Positions 2 through 9,867 are shown, numbered from the stretch's first letter. The stretch is 64,000 nucleotides of DNA from Pontiella sp. (GCA_050290185.1 JBNKHE010000004.1:32001-96000); one strand, 5' to 3'. Program-made: numbers and translations. Notes: a model not told the origin generated them from the sequence alone.

Positions 2-967
2 TGCATTATTGCCAATGGCATTGCCTTTACGGCCGGATATTCAAAGGCCCGCGGTGCTGGCGCATACAACGGCACGTATATCAACTGTACGTTCTCTAAT
101 AATGTAGCGAAATATGCCGGAAGCAGCTACAGCAGCAAGACGGAAGTTAAGGGCGGGGCGGTCTACAGTGGCATACTGGAGAATTGCGCTGTTGTTAACA
201 ACAGCGCAACCCGTCCAAATAATTTTGGCCCCCCTACTTATGGTGGTGGAGTTTTCAGCAGCGAAGCAACAAGGTGCATCCTTCAGGGAAACTACGCCCG
301 AGCGGGTGGCGGCGCCTATAGCAGTACGCTGAAGAACTGCCTTGTTGTGGAAAACGAAACGCACAGCGGGGGCGCGGGGGCAGGTGTGAAAAACTCCACG
401 CTGGAGAGTTGCACGGTCGCGGACAACATCGGGCAAGGCATGAGTGCCGGTTCGGCCACAAACTGTATCATCTATGGCAATACCGTAAGTAACTGGGCGG
501 GGACAGTCGATATTGCGTACTCATGTACAACACCCGATCCAGGCGGCACAGGGAACATCCTCTCCTTTGAGGGCTTTGACTCGGACTACTATCCCCAGCA
601 GGGATCCGTAGTGCTCAATGCAGCGCTCGAAATGTCGTGGATGGCAGGTGGCACGGACTTGCTCGGGTTCCCCAGAGTGATTGATTCCGGTCCAGACATG
701 GGCTGTCAGGAGTACTTCGGTACCAGGGGGATTGACAGCATCGAGGTACAGGGGAATGACGCCATCCTAACGTTCGATCTTTTTGATGGAGTGAATGGTA
801 TGCTGCAGGCAACGGATGATCTCACCAACGCCTGGACAGATGTAACGTCCTTTTCAGGAGCCGGGACGATCTCGGTCACCAATGATGCAAGTGGTAGTCC
901 CTGCAAATTCTTCCGTCTGAAGTACGTTAGTCCCTACACAGTCGGCGTTGGCGTTGCGTCCCCGTAG
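2..967 (+). CDS. Secreted parallel beta-helix-repeat protein (5'-truncated by window edge) with choice-of-anchor-Q-like segment and C-terminal FFRL-type domain
   Basis: Frame of ORF 347..967 stays open back to position 2 (CIIANG...GGAVYSGILENCAVVNNSA...GGGAYSSTLKNCLVVEN); repeated GG-A-Y...NC..xN motifs; GFPRVIDSGPDMGCQEY segment; ends LQATDDLTNAW...KFFRL. Confidence 0.7.
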   Translation, partial: CIIANGIAFTAGYSKARGAGAYNGTYINCTFSNNVAKYAGSSYSSKTEVKGGAVYSGILENCAVVNNSATRPNNFGPPTYGGGVFSSEATRCILQGNYARAGGGAYSSTLKNCLVVENETHSGGAGAGVKNSTLESCTVADNIGQGMSAGSATNCIIYGNTVSNWAGTVDIAYSCTTPDPGGTGNILSFEGFDSDYYPQQGSVVLNAALEMSWMAGGTDLLGFPRVIDSGPDMGCQEYFGTRGIDSIEVQGNDAILTFDLFDGVNGMLQATDDLTNAWTDVTSFSGAGTISVTNDASGSPCKFFRLKYVSPYTVGVGVASP

Positions 968-1244
968 AAAAGGGTCCGCCGACCAAAACCTGAACCAGGC
1001 CCTTCCGGCCCATACGGAATTAAAGCCGGTGTGGAAACCGAAAATGCTGAATGGCATCGTGGCCATCGAGGGTAAATGGGCCGACGGCTCAGACCTGCTG
1101 GCCATCCCCTACTACGCCCGTTGCAACCGCATCGGCGGCAGCAAGGGCCATGGCGGTTTCGGAGGACCGGGTGCCGAAGGCGGTGGTGACGGAAACCGTT
1201 CCAGCAACGGCCCATCATCCAAGGTATGGGTAGAGGAAAAGTAA
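948..1244 (+). pseudogene. Remnant 3' end of a GH127-like (beta-L-arabinofuranosidase) gene
   Basis: LNGIVAIEG...LLAIPYYARCNR...SKVWV resembles the GH127 C-terminal signature (IPYYAWxNR...VW); no upstream catalytic domain; overlaps previous stop. Confidence 0.5.
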
Positions 1245-1296
1245 TACCGATTAGAAGGAAAATGGCCGTGACGCGAAGCGAGGCCGCCGACCAGGA

Positions 1297-1351
1297 AGCA
1301 ACGACCATCGTGAGTTGCCATGCTTCTGACAACTGGAAAACAGAATCGTCC
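1297..1351. repeat. Short dispersed repeat, second copy at 19286-19345
   Basis: TGCTTCTGACAACTGGAAAACAGAATCGTCC (1321-1351) vs TGCTTCTGACAACAGGAAAATAGAATCGTCC (19315-19345), 29/31 identical, with similar upstream AGCAACGA.CA.CG.GAGT.GC. Confidence 0.8.
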
Positions 1352-1423
1352 AAAAGTCGCCAATCCTGAAATAATCAGCTCACAGGACCGCCGCAACAAA
1401 CAGACTAAACCATGAGAAACACT

Positions 1424-1906
1424 TTAGTAATAGATTATTTCCTCGTCTCGATATCTCCATTGACGAAAACAACCAAAGAGTGGTTCGCTGAATACTCTCC
1501 AGCCCCTAAGTTCATCAAACTTTCCTAAACCACCTATAATTAGCATTATCGGAGAGTCGATGAAGTTTTCCTCATAACGTGCTATATTTCGTAATGCTCG
1601 CTTATCTCGCCAGCTAAGATAGCTTGAGTTGTTGGGATGTGAGTGCCAATCACCTATGTAAGTGATTTCCCCATTGAATTGATTAAAATAATCCCCGACG
1701 CGGCTTTCGTCCGACACATAATCTGGCACGAAACCTAACCTGCCATGGATGGCATTTGGTCCAGGACCAAGAACATGTGTTATGACGACATCCGACTCAT
1801 CAGTCGCTAGGTATCCCATTAGTACCCCGCCACTTTCCTTAGGGGTTTTTACACAGGCATATTGGATCATTTTTTCATACTCAGATTTCGGGATCCATAT
1901 GCTCAT
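1424..1906 (-). CDS. JAB/MPN (Mov34) metallo-isopeptidase, CBASS Cap3-like
   Basis: ESGGVLMG, GPGPNA and YIGDWHSHP...LSWRD (JAMM E...HxH...S..D motif); likely ATG at 1906 (MSIWIPK) overlapping the end of the upstream E1 gene. Confidence 0.92.
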   Translation of the reverse strand: MSIWIPKSEYEKMIQYACVKTPKESGGVLMGYLATDESDVVITHVLGPGPNAIHGRLGFVPDYVSDESRVGDYFNQFNGEITYIGDWHSHPNNSSYLSWRDKRALRNIARYEENFIDSPIMLIIGGLGKFDELRGWRVFSEPLFGCFRQWRYRDEEIIYY

Positions 1907-3668
1907 AGGGTGCACAACTTTTGCATTTTTTAATCTTATCAAATGAATATCCGTTCCACTTTGGGAATAACCCGATTCCACTAGAGCGAAGGGATAAAAT
2001 ACCTATGTCATCAACGAGCGGGGGATATGCTCCAGCAATGCCCTCGCAGAGGGTAGAAACAGCCATACGAACTCCAGCCAATGACACTTCTTCAACGTCA
2101 AAGCTTGCTGCATGGAACGTAATATCGCCACAGCCCACGGGTTGTAATTTATCGCCGTTAGGATCAAAGGCTGGAAGCTCAATGTTATCCTCATTTTCAG
2201 GCTCATTCTCAGCTTTCTCCAGAGCTTGCCAAAAGCATAATAAACAACCTGTTTGAGCTGGTAGAACTCTTACTACATGCCCTCCCCAGCCCCCAGGACG
2301 AGAAGCAACCGTCACATAAGGTACCGATAACTCTTTGGCATAAAGAGATAGCATTTGATTAATTCCTCGTTCAGCCGTGGCGTCGAATACTAGATCCACA
2401 CCGTCAAGCATCCTAAAGAGACTTTCTTTTTGTCCAACCTCAGGAGTACCGAGCATAACTCTATCATCTTCTGTCCCAGATAAATGATGATCAATGCTTA
2501 CGTTCGTTAATGGGTAATTACTAGTAATATAATCAATAAGAGCCTTCACCTTACCCTTGCCCATTGCTTGAAGGCCAATTGGCCAGCGACAGATCGTACC
2601 AGCACTTATGAAATCCCCATCTAAGAGTCGAATCTCTCCTATTCCAGCCCTAGCAAAAGCAATGGCACTAGGTGCTCCAACACATCCCAAACCTATAACG
2701 GCTATCTTTTTTCCCCGCAGTGGATTTAGCTCTGGGATACGCTCAAAGATGTCGCACTCTCCAGCGTATTCAACTTTGATAGGGTTGATGATCAAATCCT
2801 GTTTGTTGATCTGAGCCACATAATAAAACAACCATCCATCACGTATCCCTCCTCTTGGGTTCTCCTCTGGAACACAAACAGCAAAAAGCGCATGCTTTTT
2901 CTTTTTGATCTCCAGTTGGAGCCACGAAAAAAGATCTGCGGACATAGCTCTGATACTTTCAACAAAAGCCTCAGAAGATGGCAGGCTAGGAAGACGGAAC
3001 CATGGACATTGCACACGTTTATACTCTTGGGATTTTATCCATTGGTGAATCATCGGGTTAATCGACACTCCATCAATGGGAACGTTTCCATTATCAAAAG
3101 CCACAAGAAGCCATCCCACGAAGGGGCGACCTTTTTGAATATGTTTATAATCACCGGCCACCGATAAGTGCAGAAGCCCTCTGTTTGTCGAATCTGGAAA
3201 TACCCAAGAGCTATCAAACATAATTTGCTGTCTGGCTCCCCTGTAAAACTCGGTCCATGGTTCTGCTTGATGATCTTCGCCTTGCAACCGTTCGTCTTCA
3301 TACTTTCGCGTAGCGACCCGCTCCCATTTTCCAAGCTGCTTAGTGATCAATCCCGCTGCTGTGTCGTTGGGTTGCCAGTGGTCAGTACCCCTTGCCAAAA
3401 GACATAACTCTCCCCCAGGACTATAGTGCCTGAGATCTTCGCCCAACCCTGGAACAATAACTGTGGGGCGTAAATATGGATATAAGTCAGGATACAGCAC
3501 GCTTCCAACACGCTCTTTGCCGAAAATGCTAACGCGAATATTTACCTTTAGCTTTCCTCTCTTTTTTTCAGCCTCATCGATTTCGGGATGAAGTCCGGCG
3601 CTCCGGAGAGCGCCGATCTCTTCTTCCTCGATCGCGGGGTATTCCATCCACCACGGACACGCCTTCAT
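1881..3668 (-). CDS. E2-E1 (ThiF/UBA) fusion protein, CBASS Cap2-like conjugating enzyme
   Basis: N-terminal E2-like YPDLYPYLRP...RH...GELCLL; C-terminal ThiF motifs KIAVIGLGCVG, RAGIGEIRLLDGD, DLVFDATA; Zn-type CLLC...CKSC pair; candidate catalytic Cys in PVGCGDITF. Confidence 0.9.
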   Translation of the reverse strand: MKACPWWMEYPAIEEEEIGALRSAGLHPEIDEAEKKRGKLKVNIRVSIFGKERVGSVLYPDLYPYLRPTVIVPGLGEDLRHYSPGGELCLLARGTDHWQPNDTAAGLITKQLGKWERVATRKYEDERLQGEDHQAEPWTEFYRGARQQIMFDSSWVFPDSTNRGLLHLSVAGDYKHIQKGRPFVGWLLVAFDNGNVPIDGVSINPMIHQWIKSQEYKRVQCPWFRLPSLPSSEAFVESIRAMSADLFSWLQLEIKKKKHALFAVCVPEENPRGGIRDGWLFYYVAQINKQDLIINPIKVEYAGECDIFERIPELNPLRGKKIAVIGLGCVGAPSAIAFARAGIGEIRLLDGDFISAGTICRWPIGLQAMGKGKVKALIDYITSNYPLTNVSIDHHLSGTEDDRVMLGTPEVGQKESLFRMLDGVDLVFDATAERGINQMLSLYAKELSVPYVTVASRPGGWGGHVVRVLPAQTGCLLCFWQALEKAENEPENEDNIELPAFDPNGDKLQPVGCGDITFHAASFDVEEVSLAGVRMAVSTLCEGIAGAYPPLVDDIGILSLRSSGIGLFPKWNGYSFDKIKKCKSCAPYEHMDPEI

Positions 3669-3821
3669 CTATCCCACATCTCTTCCACCACCGGGTCTTG
3701 GAGGTCTATTTGGTGGACGGTGTGGATTGGGTGGCGGTGTTGCCGGAGTCGCGGGATTACCCGGACCATTGGGATTTGCCGGTGTTGCCGGATTCCCTTT
3801 GCCTTTACCGTTATCATTCAT
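3669..3821 (-). CDS. 50-aa Pro/Gly/Asn-rich peptide ending in Gly (candidate conjugatable modifier)
   Basis: MNDNGKGKGNPATPANPNGPGNPATPATPPPNPHRPPNRPPRPGGGRDVG; AAGG upstream of ATG 3821; its TAG abuts the ATG of the E2-E1 gene (TAGATG); internal GNPATPA repeat. Confidence 0.7.
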   Translation of the reverse strand: MNDNGKGKGNPATPANPNGPGNPATPATPPPNPHRPPNRPPRPGGGRDVG

Positions 3822-3909
3822 AACTACTGTACCTTGCCGGGTTTTGGTTAACCCTGTTTTCCCCTCGGCCAGAAAACAGATCCTTGCGGTATTCGCAAAA
3901 CTGCACAGA

Positions 3910-4323
3910 CTATCCCGAAAGAGTAAATGATCTAAGACCCATGGCTTTATCCAGTATAGGATGAATCCATGGAAGACCTCGTGGCGTTTGGGCATCCAGA
4001 AAAAGATGAGAACCATGTGCGGCAGCCAACACCTTGATCATTCGGCCTTTTTTTGAGGATTTAAGCGATGAGTGGTGAGAGGCAATCAAACAAGCCATCC
4101 CCATTCCCAAACTATGGCATCCCTTCCGGTGCCACGAGCTGGTTGCTGGTTCCATTAGGTCGGCAGCCATGCCGCCTAATCCACCGACGACCACTGCGCA
4201 TATCAGTTCGCCTACATTCAATTCCTGTTGATCGCCATTTCGGATGCTCTGTAGCTGAATAGCCGCATCCAGCATGCCACCGATGGCCATTGCCCAGCCA
4301 ACATGTGTTTTTTTATTTGCCAT
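3910..4323 (-). CDS. YdjM-like membrane-associated metal-dependent hydrolase
   Basis: MANKKTH...ADLMEP...HRKGCHSL...SHLFLDAQTPRGLPW matches the family pattern (TH...PD...HRxxTHS...SHLLLD..T..G.P); GAAAGG RBS before ATG 4323. Confidence 0.82.
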   Translation of the reverse strand: MANKKTHVGWAMAIGGMLDAAIQLQSIRNGDQQELNVGELICAVVVGGLGGMAADLMEPATSSWHRKGCHSLGMGMACLIASHHSSLKSSKKGRMIKVLAAAHGSHLFLDAQTPRGLPWIHPILDKAMGLRSFTLSG

Positions 4324-4364
4324 TTCTAACCTTTCAAGTTGGATTTCTTCACAATAACGGGCGA

Positions 4365-4398
4365 AATCTAACAAAGGCGAAGTGACATATGGTGTCCC
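4365..4398 (-). promoter_or_regulatory. Putative WYL-regulator operator plus extended -10 promoter for the hydrolase-peptide-E2E1-JAB operon
   Basis: Inverted repeat GACA-N5-TGTC at 4384-4396; on the minus strand TGTCAC-N11-TAGATT with a TGn extension, ~40 nt before ATG 4323. Confidence 0.55.
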
Positions 4399-4432
4399 TA
4401 TGAAAAAAAGTTTGCCAAAAAATCAGAACGAT

Positions 4433-5425
4433 TTACCGGCAGGAGAGCTCAGCCATGGCGTGGATTTCCTCCGCAACCAGCTGTTTTAGCTTTGCAGGCC
4501 GGATCACACGGGCGTGTTTGCCCATACCCAATACCCACTGAATGACATTGAAATACGGACGTTGTCCGCTGGCACTTACCCGGAAAGTTACTTCGATATC
4601 GCCGTTCTTCAACTCTCGAATCTTTTGCTTTGCATGCCACTGGCGGTCTTTCACTTCCAGAGACCATTGGTTACTGATACGAATACATACTTCTTTCATA
4701 TCGTCCATCGATGCGAATCCGCCGAAAGAGGATTCTACCAATTCCACCGGATCAAAATCATGCGGACGACGGAATGTTTCTCCGGTTTCGGTTACCTCAA
4801 GTATACGACCGATAGCGAACTGGCGAATTGCTTTATAATGGTGGTTGTAAGCAAAAACGTACCAATCACCATGGATGTTGGCGATGTGGTAAGGATCGAT
4901 GCGGTGGGTTCGCTTACCTGTAGCCCTCTTGCTTTGATAGCCCATTTCGATGGTGCGGCGTTGGAGAACGCTCTGGCATACCGATTCCCACAGTAAAGGA
5001 TCTACCGGAATCGCTGGAGGAGCTACGAAACTGAATTCACTTAGGATTTCTTCAGGATCAATACTGGTTTGTTCTCCGAGGGCTTCCGTCAGGTGAGTAT
5101 ATACCTGTTCCAGCTTATTGGTTATCGGCAGGTCTTTGTATTGGGCCAAGGCATGGCGAGCGATGAGAAGCGAAAATAAGTCGCCTTGTTTCAATGGAAT
5201 AGAGGGGATTGCCCAAGAGGGTTCTGTGTAGTAATAGCCTTTTTTGTTGCGGTCATATTCAAGAGGCGCGTTCCATCGGTCTTTCAGGAATGCAATGTCC
5301 CGTTTAATGGTTCTCTCCGCTACTTCCCAAGCGTGGGATAACTCAGAAATGGAGGGAAACTCTTTCGAACGGATGCGTCGGTCAATATCATACAGCCGTT
5401 CCATTTGTGTTTTACAACGACTCAC
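4433..5425 (-). CDS. WYL-domain transcriptional regulator (wHTH-WYL-WCX)
   Basis: wHTH ELSHAWEVAERTIKRDIAFL...GYYY; WYL region YQS...HRIDPYHI...WYVFAY...RQFAIGRI; C-terminal WVLGMG...VIRP; likely GTG start 5425 after GGAGA. Confidence 0.93.
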   Translation of the reverse strand: MSRCKTQMERLYDIDRRIRSKEFPSISELSHAWEVAERTIKRDIAFLKDRWNAPLEYDRNKKGYYYTEPSWAIPSIPLKQGDLFSLLIARHALAQYKDLPITNKLEQVYTHLTEALGEQTSIDPEEILSEFSFVAPPAIPVDPLLWESVCQSVLQRRTIEMGYQSKRATGKRTHRIDPYHIANIHGDWYVFAYNHHYKAIRQFAIGRILEVTETGETFRRPHDFDPVELVESSFGGFASMDDMKEVCIRISNQWSLEVKDRQWHAKQKIRELKNGDIEVTFRVSASGQRPYFNVIQWVLGMGKHARVIRPAKLKQLVAEEIHAMAELSCR

Positions 5426-5505
5426 CAGGGATTCTCCAGCAAACTTCAACCAAGTTCGTGTAAGTGACAGTTTTCCAGCCACACATCAAAGCAACAGGGT
5501 CACTC

Positions 5506-5748
5506 CTATGAAATGATGTTTTCATTCAATCACCCCTGTAGCTTACCAACAGCAAACTCTTGAATAGTTTGAGACTTTACCTGCTTGCCTAAAATGACAC
5601 AAAGCAATTCCCACCTTCGCTTAAAGCTTCGGCGGACGAGCAGGAGCAATGGTATGCGGGGGATATCCCCACACCCATGAGGATCAATCGGTTATAAAAC
5701 GAGGATACCCCTCCGCGCCCCTCAGGACCCTCTGTGGTGAACTTTTTG
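5506..5748. repeat. Dispersed intergenic scaffold, copy 1 (contains minus-strand sigma70-like promoter)
   Basis: Near-identical to ~7005-7285, 16561-16675 and ~36283-36387; minus strand TTGTGT(5602-5597)-N17-TAAAGT(5579-5574). Confidence 0.85.
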
Positions 5749-5900
5749 CACTGACTTGCGCCAACGAAGCAACGCCCTCCATTCCAGCGCTTATCGATCG
5801 ATTCAAAATCGGGAAAAGCATTGGGGTCAGCCAGAGCTTCAACACGTCTCGCGCAAATAATTGATGGCAGGAAAATCCCCCATACGCATCCTCTGCTGGT

Positions 5901-6836
5901 CTACTCGTCGAAAGGAATCAGCAGTTTCTGACCGGGAGACACCGTGGCATCACCCAAACCGTTCAGTTCGCGAATCTCCTTCTCCGTCACCCCGTATTGT
6001 CGGGCGATGTCTTCGAGGGTTTCTCCGGGGTATACGACCCGCACTTCCGGGCCGGAGCACTCGCTAACCTGTTCGGGTACACGATCCATCATCACAGGAA
6101 CCGGTTCCACCGCCGGAGGTTCCTCTACATACGACTCATCCTTCCAGATGAACAGCTTCTTTACGACCCAGGCGGTACCTTTGAAGACGTATCCCAGCGG
6201 ACCAAGCACCTGTTCCTGTTTTTGTGCATTGAGCGTTACCTCCAGCGATGCGTAGTCCACCTTGCCCTTCATGGACTTCAGCCGGGCCGTCATCGAATCG
6301 ATATCACCCTGCAGCCGGGTCAATTCCTTCTCTATCGCCAGGATATCCTTCACATCCGCTGCCTTCTCAAGCAAGGCTTGAAGCCGATCCCGCAGTTTGA
6401 TCTTGGTTTCCAGACGGGCCTGGGTGTCGATATAGCGTTCCGTGACATCCTCCGAAGACAGGCTTTTAGCAATGACCTCACCCATGCCCTCAAGGCCGCC
6501 CACGACCTGCTGAAGCTTTTCCGATGGAACACGCAGGGTCAACGTCACGGAGGGCCGATCCTGATATTTCCGCTGGTGGCTGGACTCCACATAGCCTCCC
6601 ACCGCCTTGGCACATGCCGTTACATCCTCCTGGGTTTCAGCCACACCGGCGACTTCCAGCGTAATGGCCCCCCGCCAGATGAGCATCCGGTCCGACTGCA
6701 CTTCGTCCGCCGCAACGTTCAGGGCGGAATTTCCCGAAAGTGGAGCCCCGTACATGGCTATATCGGAACTGCTGTTTTTAGACATGCATCCTGAAAGCGC
6801 CAGCCCTGCCAGCAAAACGATTGCTGAGTATTTCAT
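5901..6836 (-). CDS. DUF4349-type lipoprotein with C-terminal LysM domain
   Basis: Lipobox LSGC; DRMLIWRGAITLEV...GGYVESS...LRVP...EDVTERYID...IEKELTRLQ; C-terminal VYPGETLEDIARQYGVT...LNGL...PGQKLLIP. Confidence 0.85.
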   Translation of the reverse strand: MKYSAIVLLAGLALSGCMSKNSSSDIAMYGAPLSGNSALNVAADEVQSDRMLIWRGAITLEVAGVAETQEDVTACAKAVGGYVESSHQRKYQDRPSVTLTLRVPSEKLQQVVGGLEGMGEVIAKSLSSEDVTERYIDTQARLETKIKLRDRLQALLEKAADVKDILAIEKELTRLQGDIDSMTARLKSMKGKVDYASLEVTLNAQKQEQVLGPLGYVFKGTAWVVKKLFIWKDESYVEEPPAVEPVPVMMDRVPEQVSECSGPEVRVVYPGETLEDIARQYGVTEKEIRELNGLGDATVSPGQKLLIPFDE

Positions 6837-6926
6837 TCAGTTTCCCCTTGTGATTGCTGTCGGCCAAATCACCGGCATTGTATTTTGACACATTACGGTT
6901 TCGAATCACCTTCATCAATAACGGCA

Positions 6927-7432
6927 ACTGGATCAGTCCAATGACCTGAGCCTCTTGGCGAAAGAGGCAGGCGTACTATGCCGGCAACGAGCTTTGCGAA
7001 GTGGCAAATGATGTTTTCATCCAATCACCCCTGTAGCTTGCCAACAGCAAACTCTTGAAGAGTTTGAGACTTTACCTTCTTGCCCAAGATGAAACAAAGC
7101 ATTTCCCACCTTCGCTTAAAGCTGCGGCGGACGAGCAGGAGCAATGGCTTGCGGGGGATTCCCCCCACACGCATGAGGATCAATCGATTTGAAACGAGGC
7201 TTCTCCTCCGTGGTTGCCGCTTCGCTGCCGCCGCTCTGCTCCGGCCTCACTTCGTGTCTCAGTGCCCTCTGTGGTGAACCTTTTTTGACTATGCCATTCG
7301 GCTTGGTCGCCACCTCAGCCCAAGGATTCATTAGGCCCAGGTCGCCCCTTCGGGGGTGCGGCACCAGGCTGCTCAGTTCCGTAACAGCCCCCTACTGTTT
7401 TTATCTCCCAGAGACGCAGAGGTCACAGAGTA
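6927..7432. repeat. Dispersed intergenic scaffold, copy 2 (longest; includes carboxylesterase 3' remnant)
   Basis: Collinear with ~36200-36580; 7349-7430 also matches 19139-19220; minus strand ~7330-7370 reads AWCRTPEGATWA*. Confidence 0.85.
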
Positions 7433-7536
7433 CGGAATTCCAGGAAAGAACAACCTGCCGTCCGAGGTGTACGACAGGCTGCCGTGACCGCGCTACGCAA
7501 TCCCGAAGGATCGCGTGCGGGTCGGATGAAGCGGGT

Positions 7537-9867
7537 TTATTGCGCTTCGAGGCGGAAGAATTCCGCGTTGTATGCCCCGGCCGCCACGTTGGTCACGATG
7601 GTCAAACCATTGCCGTAAACGGTCGCATTCGTCGTCCAGGAACCGGATGCCAGATTCGGCTTGCTCAGAACGTGGTAGGTTATCCCGGACTCGGAAACCC
7701 ACATCAGGTTTGCGGTTCCCGCACCTACCCCGATCAGTTGGAGCACCGGTGCGACGGAAGGACCTGCTCCAAATCGGAGCTGCACCTTGTCGACATGCGC
7801 TTCTGTAATGCTGGTATCGTTGGTCGGACTGTTCCCATTCTCCTGGATCATCAAACCAAGCGTGGAGCCGATCGCCGGACTGCCGTTCGTAAACGTATAG
7901 GAGCCGGACCATTCACCGATCGCCCATGAGACATCGGGGACCGTCACTGCGGAATCAATGATGTTCGTGACGCCATCCACGGCATTGCTGTAGCACAGCG
8001 AAACGATAACGCCTGCGGGCCGGTCGGCAAGCACCCATTTGAAGTCGAACCGGTCGCCTTCCGCAATGACATGGTCCGTCAGGTTGACGATCTTCATATA
8101 CCTCTGCGTATTCAGATAACGCGTTCCCTCGGGCGAGGACGTGCCGTAGCGGGTGCTGGCTGTAGCGCCTGCCAGCTTTGTCCAGTTGTCGATCTGGGAG
8201 AAGTCGGAGACGGTGGTCGTATTGCTGGGACTGCCGTTCACCAGCTCGAAACCACCGTTTCGGATTCCGGGGGCAATCAGGTACTGGCCGGAATAGTAGT
8301 CCGGAATCGTTGTAAACGAAAAGTCCACGATGTTGGTCACGCCATCCGTGCGAATGACTTTGAGCTGAACCGTGTAATCCGTGTCGTAGGCCAGGGTGTT
8401 GGCATAGGTGAAGGTCGTGGTCCCGGTGGAGGGGACAGCTTTCGTAGCCGCTACCACGTTCGAGTTGACCAGCATTTCGTAGCTGCTAATCAGCGAGTTG
8501 AAATCCACCTGGATATCCGTAGCAGTCACCACAATGCCCGCATCCACGGCAACGTCGATTACGCCGTCGGACGGAGACGACGAGAAGATCACATCGTCAA
8601 CATCGTTTGTGGTAAGAAACTTAATTTCAGCCACGTTACCATACGCCGCCCCGTAGCAACGGAAGTAGCGGTATGCGGTAGAGCTTCCCGTATACACCCG
8701 GTTCCAGACAGTAGGAGGAGTCCCCGAAACAGTGGCCAGGGTATCCCAGCTGAAACCGTCAACAGAGCCTTGGAACTGGGCCCCATTCATCCGTGGCGCA
8801 TTGCCCGAACGCGGATAGAAATCGACCGCCGGACAGGCCCGTTCGTTGCCCGCTCCCACATCGATGCCAACCCAGGCACCACTCGAGGCGCCGTCGTAGG
8901 CCGTGTCCGGATTGCCGTCAAATACGGCTTCGGGAAGCGTATAGATGCTGTTTTGATACGTTCCTCCGCCATCGGATATGACGGAGAAGTTTGTCACGGT
9001 TCCGGACAGTTCCGTGGATCGATCGCCTTCACCGTTTTCATTCTCGCCCGCAATGGCGAAATAGTAGGTCGTTCCTTCCACCAGGTTGGTGACCCAGTAT
9101 TCCAGCGCATTCGTGGCCGCCACGGCGACATAGTTCGTACCCGAGGTTTCGGACTGGTAGACTGTGTAGTTCGTAGCTACAGCGGCCTCGTTCCAAAACA
9201 GCTTGGCGGTAGTGCCGTTCATCCAGATCTTCCGAACGGTCGGTGCCAGCGGAACCGCGGGTGGCTCTGCGACAAACCGAATCTCGGAGAATCCCGCTCT
9301 AGTGGAGTTGGGATCGAAGGTTTCGATCACCGTGTAGCGCACATCGGTAACGCCAGTAAGCGTGCTACCGAAGGAATACTCTTCGCCGGTGTAGCTTGAT
9401 GAACTCGATGCCTGGGTAAAGCTCATATCTCCGTAGAAAGTCCAGTTGGTCCCATTATCGGTGGAATACTCCACCGTGGCATCCGAGATACCGCGCTGAG
9501 CTTCGACGTAGGAATCCCCTGTCCAGACCTCGTTGTAATTCCAGAGATGGAATCCGGTCAGGTTATACGCGCCGCCAAGCGTGTAGGTGATCGACGCGAC
9601 GCCGCTCGGATCGCCATCGGTAGGGTTGGTACACCATGTACTTCCGGCACCGGTATCGTGGGATGGATAGACCGAAGGGATGGCATCACCGGTTTGCACG
9701 ATGGTGGCATCGGATAGGCCGGCCCCGTTTACCGAGTTAATCGCAGCGCGTTGGGCCGATGTGGCTACCGCACCGGTTGGGTCTACAATAATGTTGGTTT
9801 GGGCACTGGCACTGATGGCCAGCATCAGCGTAGCAAAACCGCCCGCTATCATCTTCATTGTTTTCAT
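7537..9867 (-). CDS. Secreted modular protein (discoidin-like N-domain, FN3, F5/8-type domain, C-terminal FFRL domain)
   Basis: Signal peptide MKTMK...ASA; YNLTGFHLWNYNE...SEIRF domain; FN3 LFWN...YTVY...NLVEGTTYYFAI; AVFDG...WVGID...YPRSG...GAQFQGS; ends EFFRLEAQ. Confidence 0.8.
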   Translation of the reverse strand: MKTMKMIAGGFATLMLAISASAQTNIIVDPTGAVATSAQRAAINSVNGAGLSDATIVQTGDAIPSVYPSHDTGAGSTWCTNPTDGDPSGVASITYTLGGAYNLTGFHLWNYNEVWTGDSYVEAQRGISDATVEYSTDNGTNWTFYGDMSFTQASSSSSYTGEEYSFGSTLTGVTDVRYTVIETFDPNSTRAGFSEIRFVAEPPAVPLAPTVRKIWMNGTTAKLFWNEAAVATNYTVYQSETSGTNYVAVAATNALEYWVTNLVEGTTYYFAIAGENENGEGDRSTELSGTVTNFSVISDGGGTYQNSIYTLPEAVFDGNPDTAYDGASSGAWVGIDVGAGNERACPAVDFYPRSGNAPRMNGAQFQGSVDGFSWDTLATVSGTPPTVWNRVYTGSSTAYRYFRCYGAAYGNVAEIKFLTTNDVDDVIFSSSPSDGVIDVAVDAGIVVTATDIQVDFNSLISSYEMLVNSNVVAATKAVPSTGTTTFTYANTLAYDTDYTVQLKVIRTDGVTNIVDFSFTTIPDYYSGQYLIAPGIRNGGFELVNGSPSNTTTVSDFSQIDNWTKLAGATASTRYGTSSPEGTRYLNTQRYMKIVNLTDHVIAEGDRFDFKWVLADRPAGVIVSLCYSNAVDGVTNIIDSAVTVPDVSWAIGEWSGSYTFTNGSPAIGSTLGLMIQENGNSPTNDTSITEAHVDKVQLRFGAGPSVAPVLQLIGVGAGTANLMWVSESGITYHVLSKPNLASGSWTTNATVYGNGLTIVTNVAAGAYNAEFFRLEAQ

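Follow-up and report, generated by a model that had tools for sequence, protein, structure and literature searches.

The window analysed here is a stretch of 64,000 nucleotides (nt) of Pontiella sp. (GCA_050290185.1, JBNKHE010000004.1:32001-96000), and the element under study is a predicted protein-conjugation cassette at positions 1424-5425, counted from the first letter of the window. Five co-oriented open reading frames (ORFs) were present on the minus strand (Table 1). The stop codon of a short proline-rich peptide directly adjoined the ATG of an E2-E1 fusion gene, within whose 3' end the JAB protease gene started, with an overlap of 26 nt. At 0.469, the GC content of the cassette was below that of the flanks (0.555 and 0.564) and of the genome (0.544), and the neighbours were a weak GH127-C fragment (E 0.099) on one side and a DUF4349-LysM gene on the other. 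Neither a nucleotidyltransferase of the CGAS/DncV kind (CD-NTase) nor a beta-grasp protein was found among the cassette ORFs. A first-pass annotation of this DNA had described the locus in the same terms: five co-oriented genes, of which the last three abut or overlap, a lower GC content than the flanks, unrelated borders (a GH127 remnant and a DUF4349 gene), and no CD-NTase or ubiquitin-like protein (Ubl). Its grouping of the five genes into one unit did not hold as a conserved feature, since only 1 of 132 related loci encoded a YdjM homologue, and a WYL gene oriented as in the window was likewise seen at one locus. The comparison of loci indicates instead a conserved unit of three genes, namely the proline-rich peptide, the E2-E1 fusion and the JAB protease.

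Table 1. Features of the cassette (window positions; the likely starts of the WYL, YdjM and JAB genes are readings of the sequence)
Feature	Position	Strand	Basis
WYL gene: HTH_11-WYL-WCX (helix-turn-helix (HTH)-WYL-WCX transcription factor)	ORF 4433-5482, likely start 5404	-	Pfam
Candidate WYL operator (weak): imperfect palindrome GTGACA-N5-TGTCCC, between WYL and ydjM	4382-4398	.	
YdjM-family membrane protein	ORF 3910-4374, likely start 4323	-	PF04307, E 3.7e-8
Pro-rich peptide of 50 amino acids (aa), end R47-D48-V49-G50; predicted modifier (E1-E2 substrate)	3669-3821	-	no family match
Cap2-like E2-linker-E1 fusion, 595 aa	1881-3668	-	ThiF, E 1.9e-16, and weak Prok-E2_B
E2-E1 residues: E2 H81/C89; GxGxxG G326/G328/G331; putative crossover-loop C513; Zn-site C475/C478/C582			
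JAB/JAMM metalloprotease, Cap3-like; predicted maturase and deconjugase	1424-1906, likely start 1906	-	PF14464 (Prok-JAB), E 2.7e-11
JAB residues: E49, H113, H115, S123, D126 (numbering from GTG at 1981)			

Related loci were gathered by E2-E1 homology alone, to a total of 145 (52 from species genomes, the best 80 of 210 metagenome matches, 1 from a phylum search, and 12 chosen out of 167 plasmid records); a single-sequence locus scan gave 113 pattern matches, none of them confirmed, and an alignment query was used instead. We set aside 18 loci without upstream sequence and kept five distant plasmid loci as an outgroup of canonical cyclic oligonucleotide-based antiphage signalling systems (CBASS), four of them with an annotated nucleotidyltransferase and the fifth (L147) assigned by reading its upstream ORF. 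In 119 of the 122 scorable loci, an upstream ORF carried a C-terminal Pro-rich tract followed by R-x-V-G or a one-residue variant of it, ending at the E2-E1 start or, in two loci, further upstream. The remaining three were L011 and L049, in which this tail sequence is present but its reading frame is broken at the junction, and L136, the most distant one, which ends in RTHG. The same tail test on 28,895 other frames of the loci gave two background matches besides the window's own copy. Recurrence of a Gly-terminated Pro-rich ORF immediately upstream of E2-E1 was the test proposed in the first-pass annotation, and these counts bear it out; that annotation had listed the 50-aa gene correctly, while its possible role as modifier and the portable nature of its tail went unrecognised. 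The 95 distinct tails gave the consensus P-G-P-P-x-P-P-[RK]-P-P-x-x-R-x-V-G, in which R, V, and G were each present in 94 of 95, and in 93 of 95 the stop codon lay at most about 40 nt from the E2-E1 start. One to four residues followed the Gly in 18 of the 95 tails, and L048 displayed a head-to-tail precursor of two units (93 aa); both features point to a maturation role of the JAB protease, as with ubiquitin precursors.

The peptide behaves as a coding sequence under purifying selection, judging from its differences with 10 close homologues: these fell at codon positions 1, 2, and 3 in proportions of 23, 22, and 67%, respectively, indels were in frame, and ATG and stop codon were common to all. 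This codon pattern and the in-frame indels rule out that the stretch is a non-coding repeat or RNA and not a peptide gene. No match for the window peptide was obtained in Pfam, PADLOC, or NCBIfam, nor a usable one in the ESM Atlas. Its AlphaFold2 (AF2) model, with a predicted template-modelling score (pTM) of 0.21 and neither helix nor strand reported, indicates an unfolded peptide without a beta-grasp. Exact look-up of five peptides in a collection of 15 billion proteins found none of the five, a search that a different choice of start codon would also cause to fail, and the peptide was annotated in one of seven plasmid gene tables, which are incomplete; gene callers seem to overlook it.

The AF2 model of the E2-E1 protein, built on an 80-sequence alignment, had a pLDDT of 94, and its best fold in the PDB was Enterobacter Cap2 (7TO3), matched at full length (E 2.5e-23, TM 0.60, 15% identity). 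In profile searches the N-terminal part resembled UBE2L3 and the C-terminal part ThiF, MoeB, UBA5, and Cap2; MccB, PaaA, and Atg7 were further matches by sequence or fold. Among distinct homologue rows, all 110 that could be scored for the E2 had C89 and all but one of these (109 of 110) had H81, and the E1 glycines (G326/G328/G331), D352, R361, K373, C475, C478, and C513 were each found in 125 of 125. From this invariance and the likeness to C109 and C548 of Cap2, we infer that C89 and C513 are the catalytic cysteines. The E1-E2 models of PADLOC covered only the E1 half, and the 6A-MBL model NF058523 scored 45.7 and 60.4 bits, with a cut-off of 320. A JAB gene lay 3' of E2-E1 in 141 of 145 loci, the four misses being due to contig ends (0-208 nt left). 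The strict HxH..S..D motif was conserved in 103 of 120 distinct JAB rows, most of the others being truncated or WHV/WHN variants. By these conservation patterns the conjugation machinery is intact and under selection.

As a separate observation, E2-E1 was spread over more than one frame in 23 loci, including L007, L013, L023, L025, L038, L045, L047, L092, L100, L103, L106, L109, L116, L117, L126, L128, and L130. The break was mostly a clean one between linker and E1, near residue 285-295, and occurred in several tree groups, among them one of Planctomycetota; a few cases resembled frameshift errors.

A complex of the E1 dimer with ATP and two copies of the peptide was modelled. It scored 0.72, the best of three controls reaching 0.01; in the calibration, 116 of 157 solved complexes scored at or above the mark used here, as did 2 of 215 mismatched pairs. 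Runs agreed in at least 41% of contacts, with a partner pLDDT of at least 42, and confident contacts came only from peptide residues 45-50, which touched the GxGxxG nucleotide loop, R361, and positions 430-432 and 454-458. The model favours entry of the peptide C-terminus into the E1 adenylation site, but it may reflect look-alike complexes that have been solved.

The tail occurred in free and fused forms. Stand-alone peptides of about 30-65 aa were found in 102 of the 119 tailed loci (80 distinct), spanning at least 11 phyla or candidate phyla in the 37 genome loci. Their median length was 49 aa, with 37% Pro and 7% hydrophobic residues, and Lys was present in 71 of 77 (starts chosen by script); His amounted to 8.9%, many peptides showing His-Pro repeats, whereas the clade of the window is His-poor. 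In the other 17 loci (15 distinct) the tail was fused to a domain. Three of these (L016, L024, and L073) encoded tailed SMODS CD-NTases, each within a complete CBASS operon whose effector is of patatin or SAVED type. The three cyclases had different best PADLOC models, and their tail sits where Cap2 substrates carry theirs. The other fusions involved ThsB-type TIR proteins (five, including L009, L020, and L104), DUF3892 (five), and a helical domain (four), whose 83-85-aa look-alikes align over residues 1-84, that is, without the tail. This helical domain of about 85 aa was found in Bacteroidota (L006:5631-5981, L010, L021, and L115) and bears a weak structural likeness to DUF2853. In our preferred reading, the tail is probably a portable conjugation signal that has come to be joined to CD-NTases, TIR proteins, DUF3892, and the helical domain. 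In trees of the E1 domain the tailed clade stood apart from the five canonical Cap2 rows with support of 86-91 and long branches (the 82-row tree leaves out rows without upstream sequence and near-duplicates), and fused forms were nested among free ones, with five changes on the tree. The direction of change between free and fused forms is not fixed by these trees, because approximately unbiased (AU) tests reject neither of two constrained alternatives; several independent fusions of the tail are likewise not established, as single-origin trees are not rejected by the same tests in spite of the five changes.

The genes upstream of the three-gene core varied among loci. The YdjM homologue at the single related locus lay on the opposite strand, and WYL genes were found at 11 of 145 loci, 10 of them divergent and one co-oriented. 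YdjM and the co-oriented WYL gene, each at one locus, were therefore rejected as core genes; YdjM appears from these counts to be a local passenger and WYL a probable local, replaceable regulator of the cassette. Among 63 distinct stand-alone loci with at least 1.7 kb of upstream sequence, 25 had a regulator (M78, WYL or S24) within 2.6 kb: 20 an IrrE/M78 peptidase (19 divergent), 4 a divergent WYL gene, and 1 LexA; a co-oriented DUF2188 gene was found at eight. Relatives thus carry a divergent pair of CapH/CapP type more often than the WYL arrangement of the window. Divergent CapH/CapP layouts have been described at CBASS, DUF2188, DUF3892, 6a, and 6e operons (Lau et al., 10.1101/2022.04.27.489752). 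The palindrome at 4382-4398 is a weak candidate for a WYL operator, proposed by likeness to SiwR (PMC10693628). Its pattern had a single match in the genome, being itself derived from that site, and a looser pattern gave two matches in the window vs. 0.46 expected, a number reached by 6 of 100 shuffles. An 8-mer from the end of this palindrome recurred at 5459-5466, upstream of the WYL start and at a similar distance to the ATG.

Taken together, we read the cassette as a three-gene, effector-less protein-tagging system with an unfolded peptide as modifier, with a probability of roughly 0.7; such a system would be simpler than the forms of bacterial protein tagging reported to date. It would ligate the peptide to proteins under stress; the conjugation, its targets, and a defence role are all inferred. 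DNA damage or infection would induce the operon. The WYL factor would mediate this in the window, and at other loci the mediator would often be a divergent HTH and IrrE/CapP pair, a CapW-like WYL protein or LexA. In a step that is strongly supported, the E1 dimer would adenylate the C-terminal Gly of the peptide, reading R-x-V-G and its Pro-rich lead-in, and the tag would then pass as a thioester from C513 to C89 of the E2. If the chemistry follows that of Cap2, the E2 would transfer the tag to a target lysine or N-terminal amine with no E3, and the JAB protease would trim the residues after the Gly off precursors and remove the tag. Adenylation, two thioesters, transfer to an amine, and reversal by JAB have been described for Cap2/Cap3 (10.1101/2022.03.31.486616, PMC11153139). 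As no effector gene is present, the tag itself may be the output, a step to which we give an even chance: a rigid polyproline rod that bears charges and may be built into chains would sterically hinder the assembly or function of proteins of phages or mobile elements, as the folded Ubl of Bil obstructs on tail fibres (PMC11601603, PMC13434031). Obstruction of invader proteins, proposed by this analogy, is the most speculative part.

Several points weigh against this interpretation. Both conjugation and target are predicted only, from sequence and models. The score of the complex may stem from solved structures of Cap2-CdnD or of MoeB/ThiF-type complexes that the model has memorised, and since such structures exist the model indicates likeness and not binding; in addition, the job differed from those of the calibration in using its own alignments and including ATP. 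Neither constrained tree was rejected (p-AU of 0.128 for all fused forms as one clade and 0.093 for the tailed CD-NTases placed with canonical CBASS). No damage regulator was detected at 38 of the 63 loci. The neighbours were mixed, with transposases, recombinases, some restriction-modification, HipA, and metal-resistance genes, so a defence role is suggested and not established. Finally, E. coli carrying related Bub operons was not protected against phages (Ye et al., PMC11601596).

A rival reading is that of a decayed type II CBASS, in which the peptide would be the leftover tail of a CD-NTase, or of a Cap2/Cap3-like pair that serves a CD-NTase in trans. The tail on three CD-NTases of intact CBASS operons would fit it, and an origin from a tailed CD-NTase is not rejected by the AU test, but this reading is hard to reconcile with 80 distinct stand-alone peptides in at least 11 phyla or candidate phyla, with their own start codons and signs of purifying selection. 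Moreover, the genome of the window (95.5% complete) encoded a single SMODS protein, paired with SLATT_4 and without the tail at its C-terminus, and a genome-wide tail scan of 79,455 frames gave only 10 weak, motif-poor matches. Of 37 peptide-bearing genomes, many of them incomplete, 8 gave SMODS matches, 11 in all and none of them tailed, and a CD-NTase-like gene lay in the examined flank of 2 of 102 stand-alone loci, as detected with a profile of incomplete sensitivity that missed outgroup locus L147. A nucleotide-activated effector was not found among the five cassette ORFs, and none was recurrent in the stand-alone loci. A CD-NTase substrate was rejected both in cis and in trans, and we regard the decayed-CBASS reading as largely refuted and extremely improbable. 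Two possibilities that the first-pass annotation had itself raised against its proposal, that close homologues all carry a CD-NTase or a Ubl and that a cognate CD-NTase elsewhere in the genome is the substrate, find no counterpart here. As to CD-NTases found in the course of this comparison, the SMODS cyclase and SLATT_4 effector of the window's genome form a two-gene CBASS-like pair on contig C7 (L134:6722-8159), and at L071:8311-10467 two CD-NTases without the tail, together with another E1-like gene, come after a cassette with stand-alone peptide.

Other explanations accept the peptide as a substrate or as a gene and differ on its purpose. Pup, a small disordered modifier joined through its C-terminus and associated with a WYL regulator in actinobacteria, is handled by the glutamine-synthetase-like enzymes PafA/Dop and the proteasome, and a similar marking of host proteins for degradation, sequestration or relocation, as part of a general response to stress (perhaps by metals) and not to obstruct phages, would agree with an equally unfolded modifier. 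The regulator of the window shares the architecture of PafBC, SiwR, and DriD (PMC10693628), three of the copies on plasmids are situated within regions for resistance to copper or cadmium, many peptides are His-Pro-rich, and Bacillus Cap2 conjugates to host PspA (PMC11153139). We consider it unlikely all the same, given that neither a protease nor a receptor gene is recurrent around the core, the distribution is sporadic and mobile, the passengers of the tail are immune proteins, and the clade of the window is His-poor. A short peptide with a ThiF-family enzyme and a peptidase is also the anatomy of ribosomally synthesised and post-translationally modified peptides (RiPPs), in which case the E1 would activate the C-terminus for a modified peptide, a lipid or a small amine; MccB, which modifies the microcin C peptide, PaaA, and Atg7 were among the matches, and lipid coupling by ATG7/ATG3-ATG8 offers a parallel. 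An E2 domain with an invariant Cys, a best fold that is full-length Cap2, the lack of recurrent exporter, immunity or tailoring genes, and the identical tail type on enzymes of 200-340 aa make it distinctly unlikely. Ribosomes stall at polyproline, so that a peptide with a median of 37% Pro whose gene is coupled in translation to E2-E1 might regulate the ligase, either as a stalling leader ORF or as a decoy of the E1 site with the true substrate elsewhere. We judge this very improbable, as a leader ORF would need neither the invariant R-x-V-G nor processing extensions nor a tandem precursor, and the genome scan yielded nothing beyond its few motif-poor matches.

The tagging system proposed here shares with type II CBASS Cap2/Cap3 (Iyer-Aravind type 6b) the E2-linker-E1 fold, both cysteines, the downstream JAB gene, and a substrate with an unstructured C-terminal tail, predicted to be the part that is read, with a small last residue, and three loci of the tailed clade are true CBASS. 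It differs in that 102 of 119 tailed loci lack a cyclase or recurrent effector, the substrate being the tail alone, in the Pro-rich R-x-V-G end in contrast with SASA, SQGA, SESA, and TPQG in outgroup loci, and in the low identity to Cap2. Table 1 of Iyer 2006 (PMC1779556) lists RhNGR234a and Arthrobacter in row 6b as nucleotidyltransferase E2-E1 and JAB operons, whereas the NGR234a and Arthrobacter FB24 loci that we fetched, presumably the same ones, contained the peptide only. TIR proteins with a C-terminal Gly tail beside Cap2/Cap3 have been described in Thoeris operons (10.64898/2025.12.03.692087), and L009, L020, and L104 are probably of that kind; the tail is there on a signalling enzyme accompanied by an effector, and a stand-alone peptide goes unmentioned in the accessible part of that paper. 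Bil (type I/II) and Bub also conjugate a modifier with JAB and without effector, and Bub operons carry CapW in 8% and CapH plus CapP in 31% of cases (PMC11601596), rates similar to those found here (WYL in 4 and IrrE/M78 in 20 of 63). Their modifier is, however, a beta-grasp Ubl and the peptide has no such fold; Bil uses a separate E1, of IAD-AAD-CYS type, and E2 instead of a fusion, and Bub forms Tyr/Ser oxyesters and includes BubE (DUF6527), in contrast with both cysteines being invariant here. DUF6527 had no match among the window ORFs. The Cap2-like proteins associated with 6A-MBL/Pycsar share the E2-E1 and JAB chemistry and differ in the triple fusion of E2, E1, and JAB with a metallo-beta-lactamase, JAB being a separate ORF in the window and the metallo-beta-lactamase absent. 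The likeness to Pup (a small disordered modifier, C-terminal attachment, a WYL link) is accompanied by different enzymes, E1, E2, and JAB, and by the lack of proteasome genes. Four further operon families are mentioned by Chambers et al. (10.1101/2023.09.26.559546). A full-text literature search, which did not extend to supplements or most subscription papers, turned up no paper describing a Pro-rich peptide that stands alone beside Cap2/Cap3. These comparisons agree with the first-pass proposal of a distinct conjugation system of Cap2/Cap3 type that lacks both CD-NTase and Ubl, and the cassette is an apparently undescribed variant of Cap2-type conjugation, widespread but rare, outside CBASS, Bil, Bub, and 6A-MBL.

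In a broader sense, the chances seem evenly balanced that these peptides form a further class of modifier: unfolded polyproline peptides of 30-65 aa, served by an ATG7/Cap2-type E1-E2, with JAB both maturing them, from poly-tag precursors as well, and taking them off again, acting themselves as immune or stress effectors, and having a 16-residue end that was later grafted as a 'conjugate-me' signal. If such grafting took place, the tailed signalling enzymes of this clade could have arisen from the free peptide as their ground state. In the available papers, every E1-E2 substrate is either a beta-grasp fold or the tail of a large signalling enzyme; with an unfolded peptide that is free, it would become clear that both fold and passenger are dispensable and that tagging alone is functional. 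It would also separate the question of type II CBASS, namely the effect and targets of conjugation, from cyclase signalling, in a form readable through a simple trypsin remnant. 'Orphan' ThiF/Mov34 pairs may find an explanation here, and protein ligation could make use of such a ligase, which is one chain and recognises a short tag.

The system was rare and patchy, with 2 of 401 genomes of the phylum, including that of the window. The profile reached 1,052 clusters (50% identity) at E<=1e-30. Among the hosts were the cultured non-pathogens Sinorhizobium fredii NGR234, Arthrobacter FB24, Sphingobium, Hymenobacter, Geotalea, and Blastococcus. In viral contigs, 66 pattern matches included no E2-E1 relative, annotated phages gave one weak E1-only match, and 22 stretches of viral contigs that matched a relaxed tail pattern look like chance frames, neither E2-E1 nor JAB being close to them. 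One viral contig (L160) encoded at 2734-3048 a phrog_419 protein with a polyproline tract and RMVG at its C-terminus, followed at 2946-3503 by an overlapping JAB-like ORF (Prok-JAB E 2.6e-4, under the cut-off; HxH..S..D), near the terminase small subunit; the pair could be a phage decoy with a deconjugase, being a single case that may be due to chance.

Around the cassette, an Rfam search of 900-7600 gave no match, and promoter and terminator scans of the window performed no better than shuffles. One contig of sequencing run X1, which may itself be the source of the assembly, covers 300-5570; contigs from two sequencing runs of another study matched short pieces only and have no bearing on expression. 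A second copy of the GH127-like remnant at 948-1244, with 92% identity, was located in another part of its contig. The DUF4349-LysM gene has on both sides an intergenic repeat of about 160-260 nt with 92% identity (5511-5670 and 7006-7165); this repeat had no Rfam match, and more copies exist in the genome. Among the plasmid loci, L137, L138, and L140 were those located inside copper or cadmium resistance regions, and at L140:2465-3552 (Sphingobium) and L141:2591-3676 (S. fredii NGR234) a RES plus Xre/MbcA toxin-antitoxin pair occupied the position of the divergent regulator.

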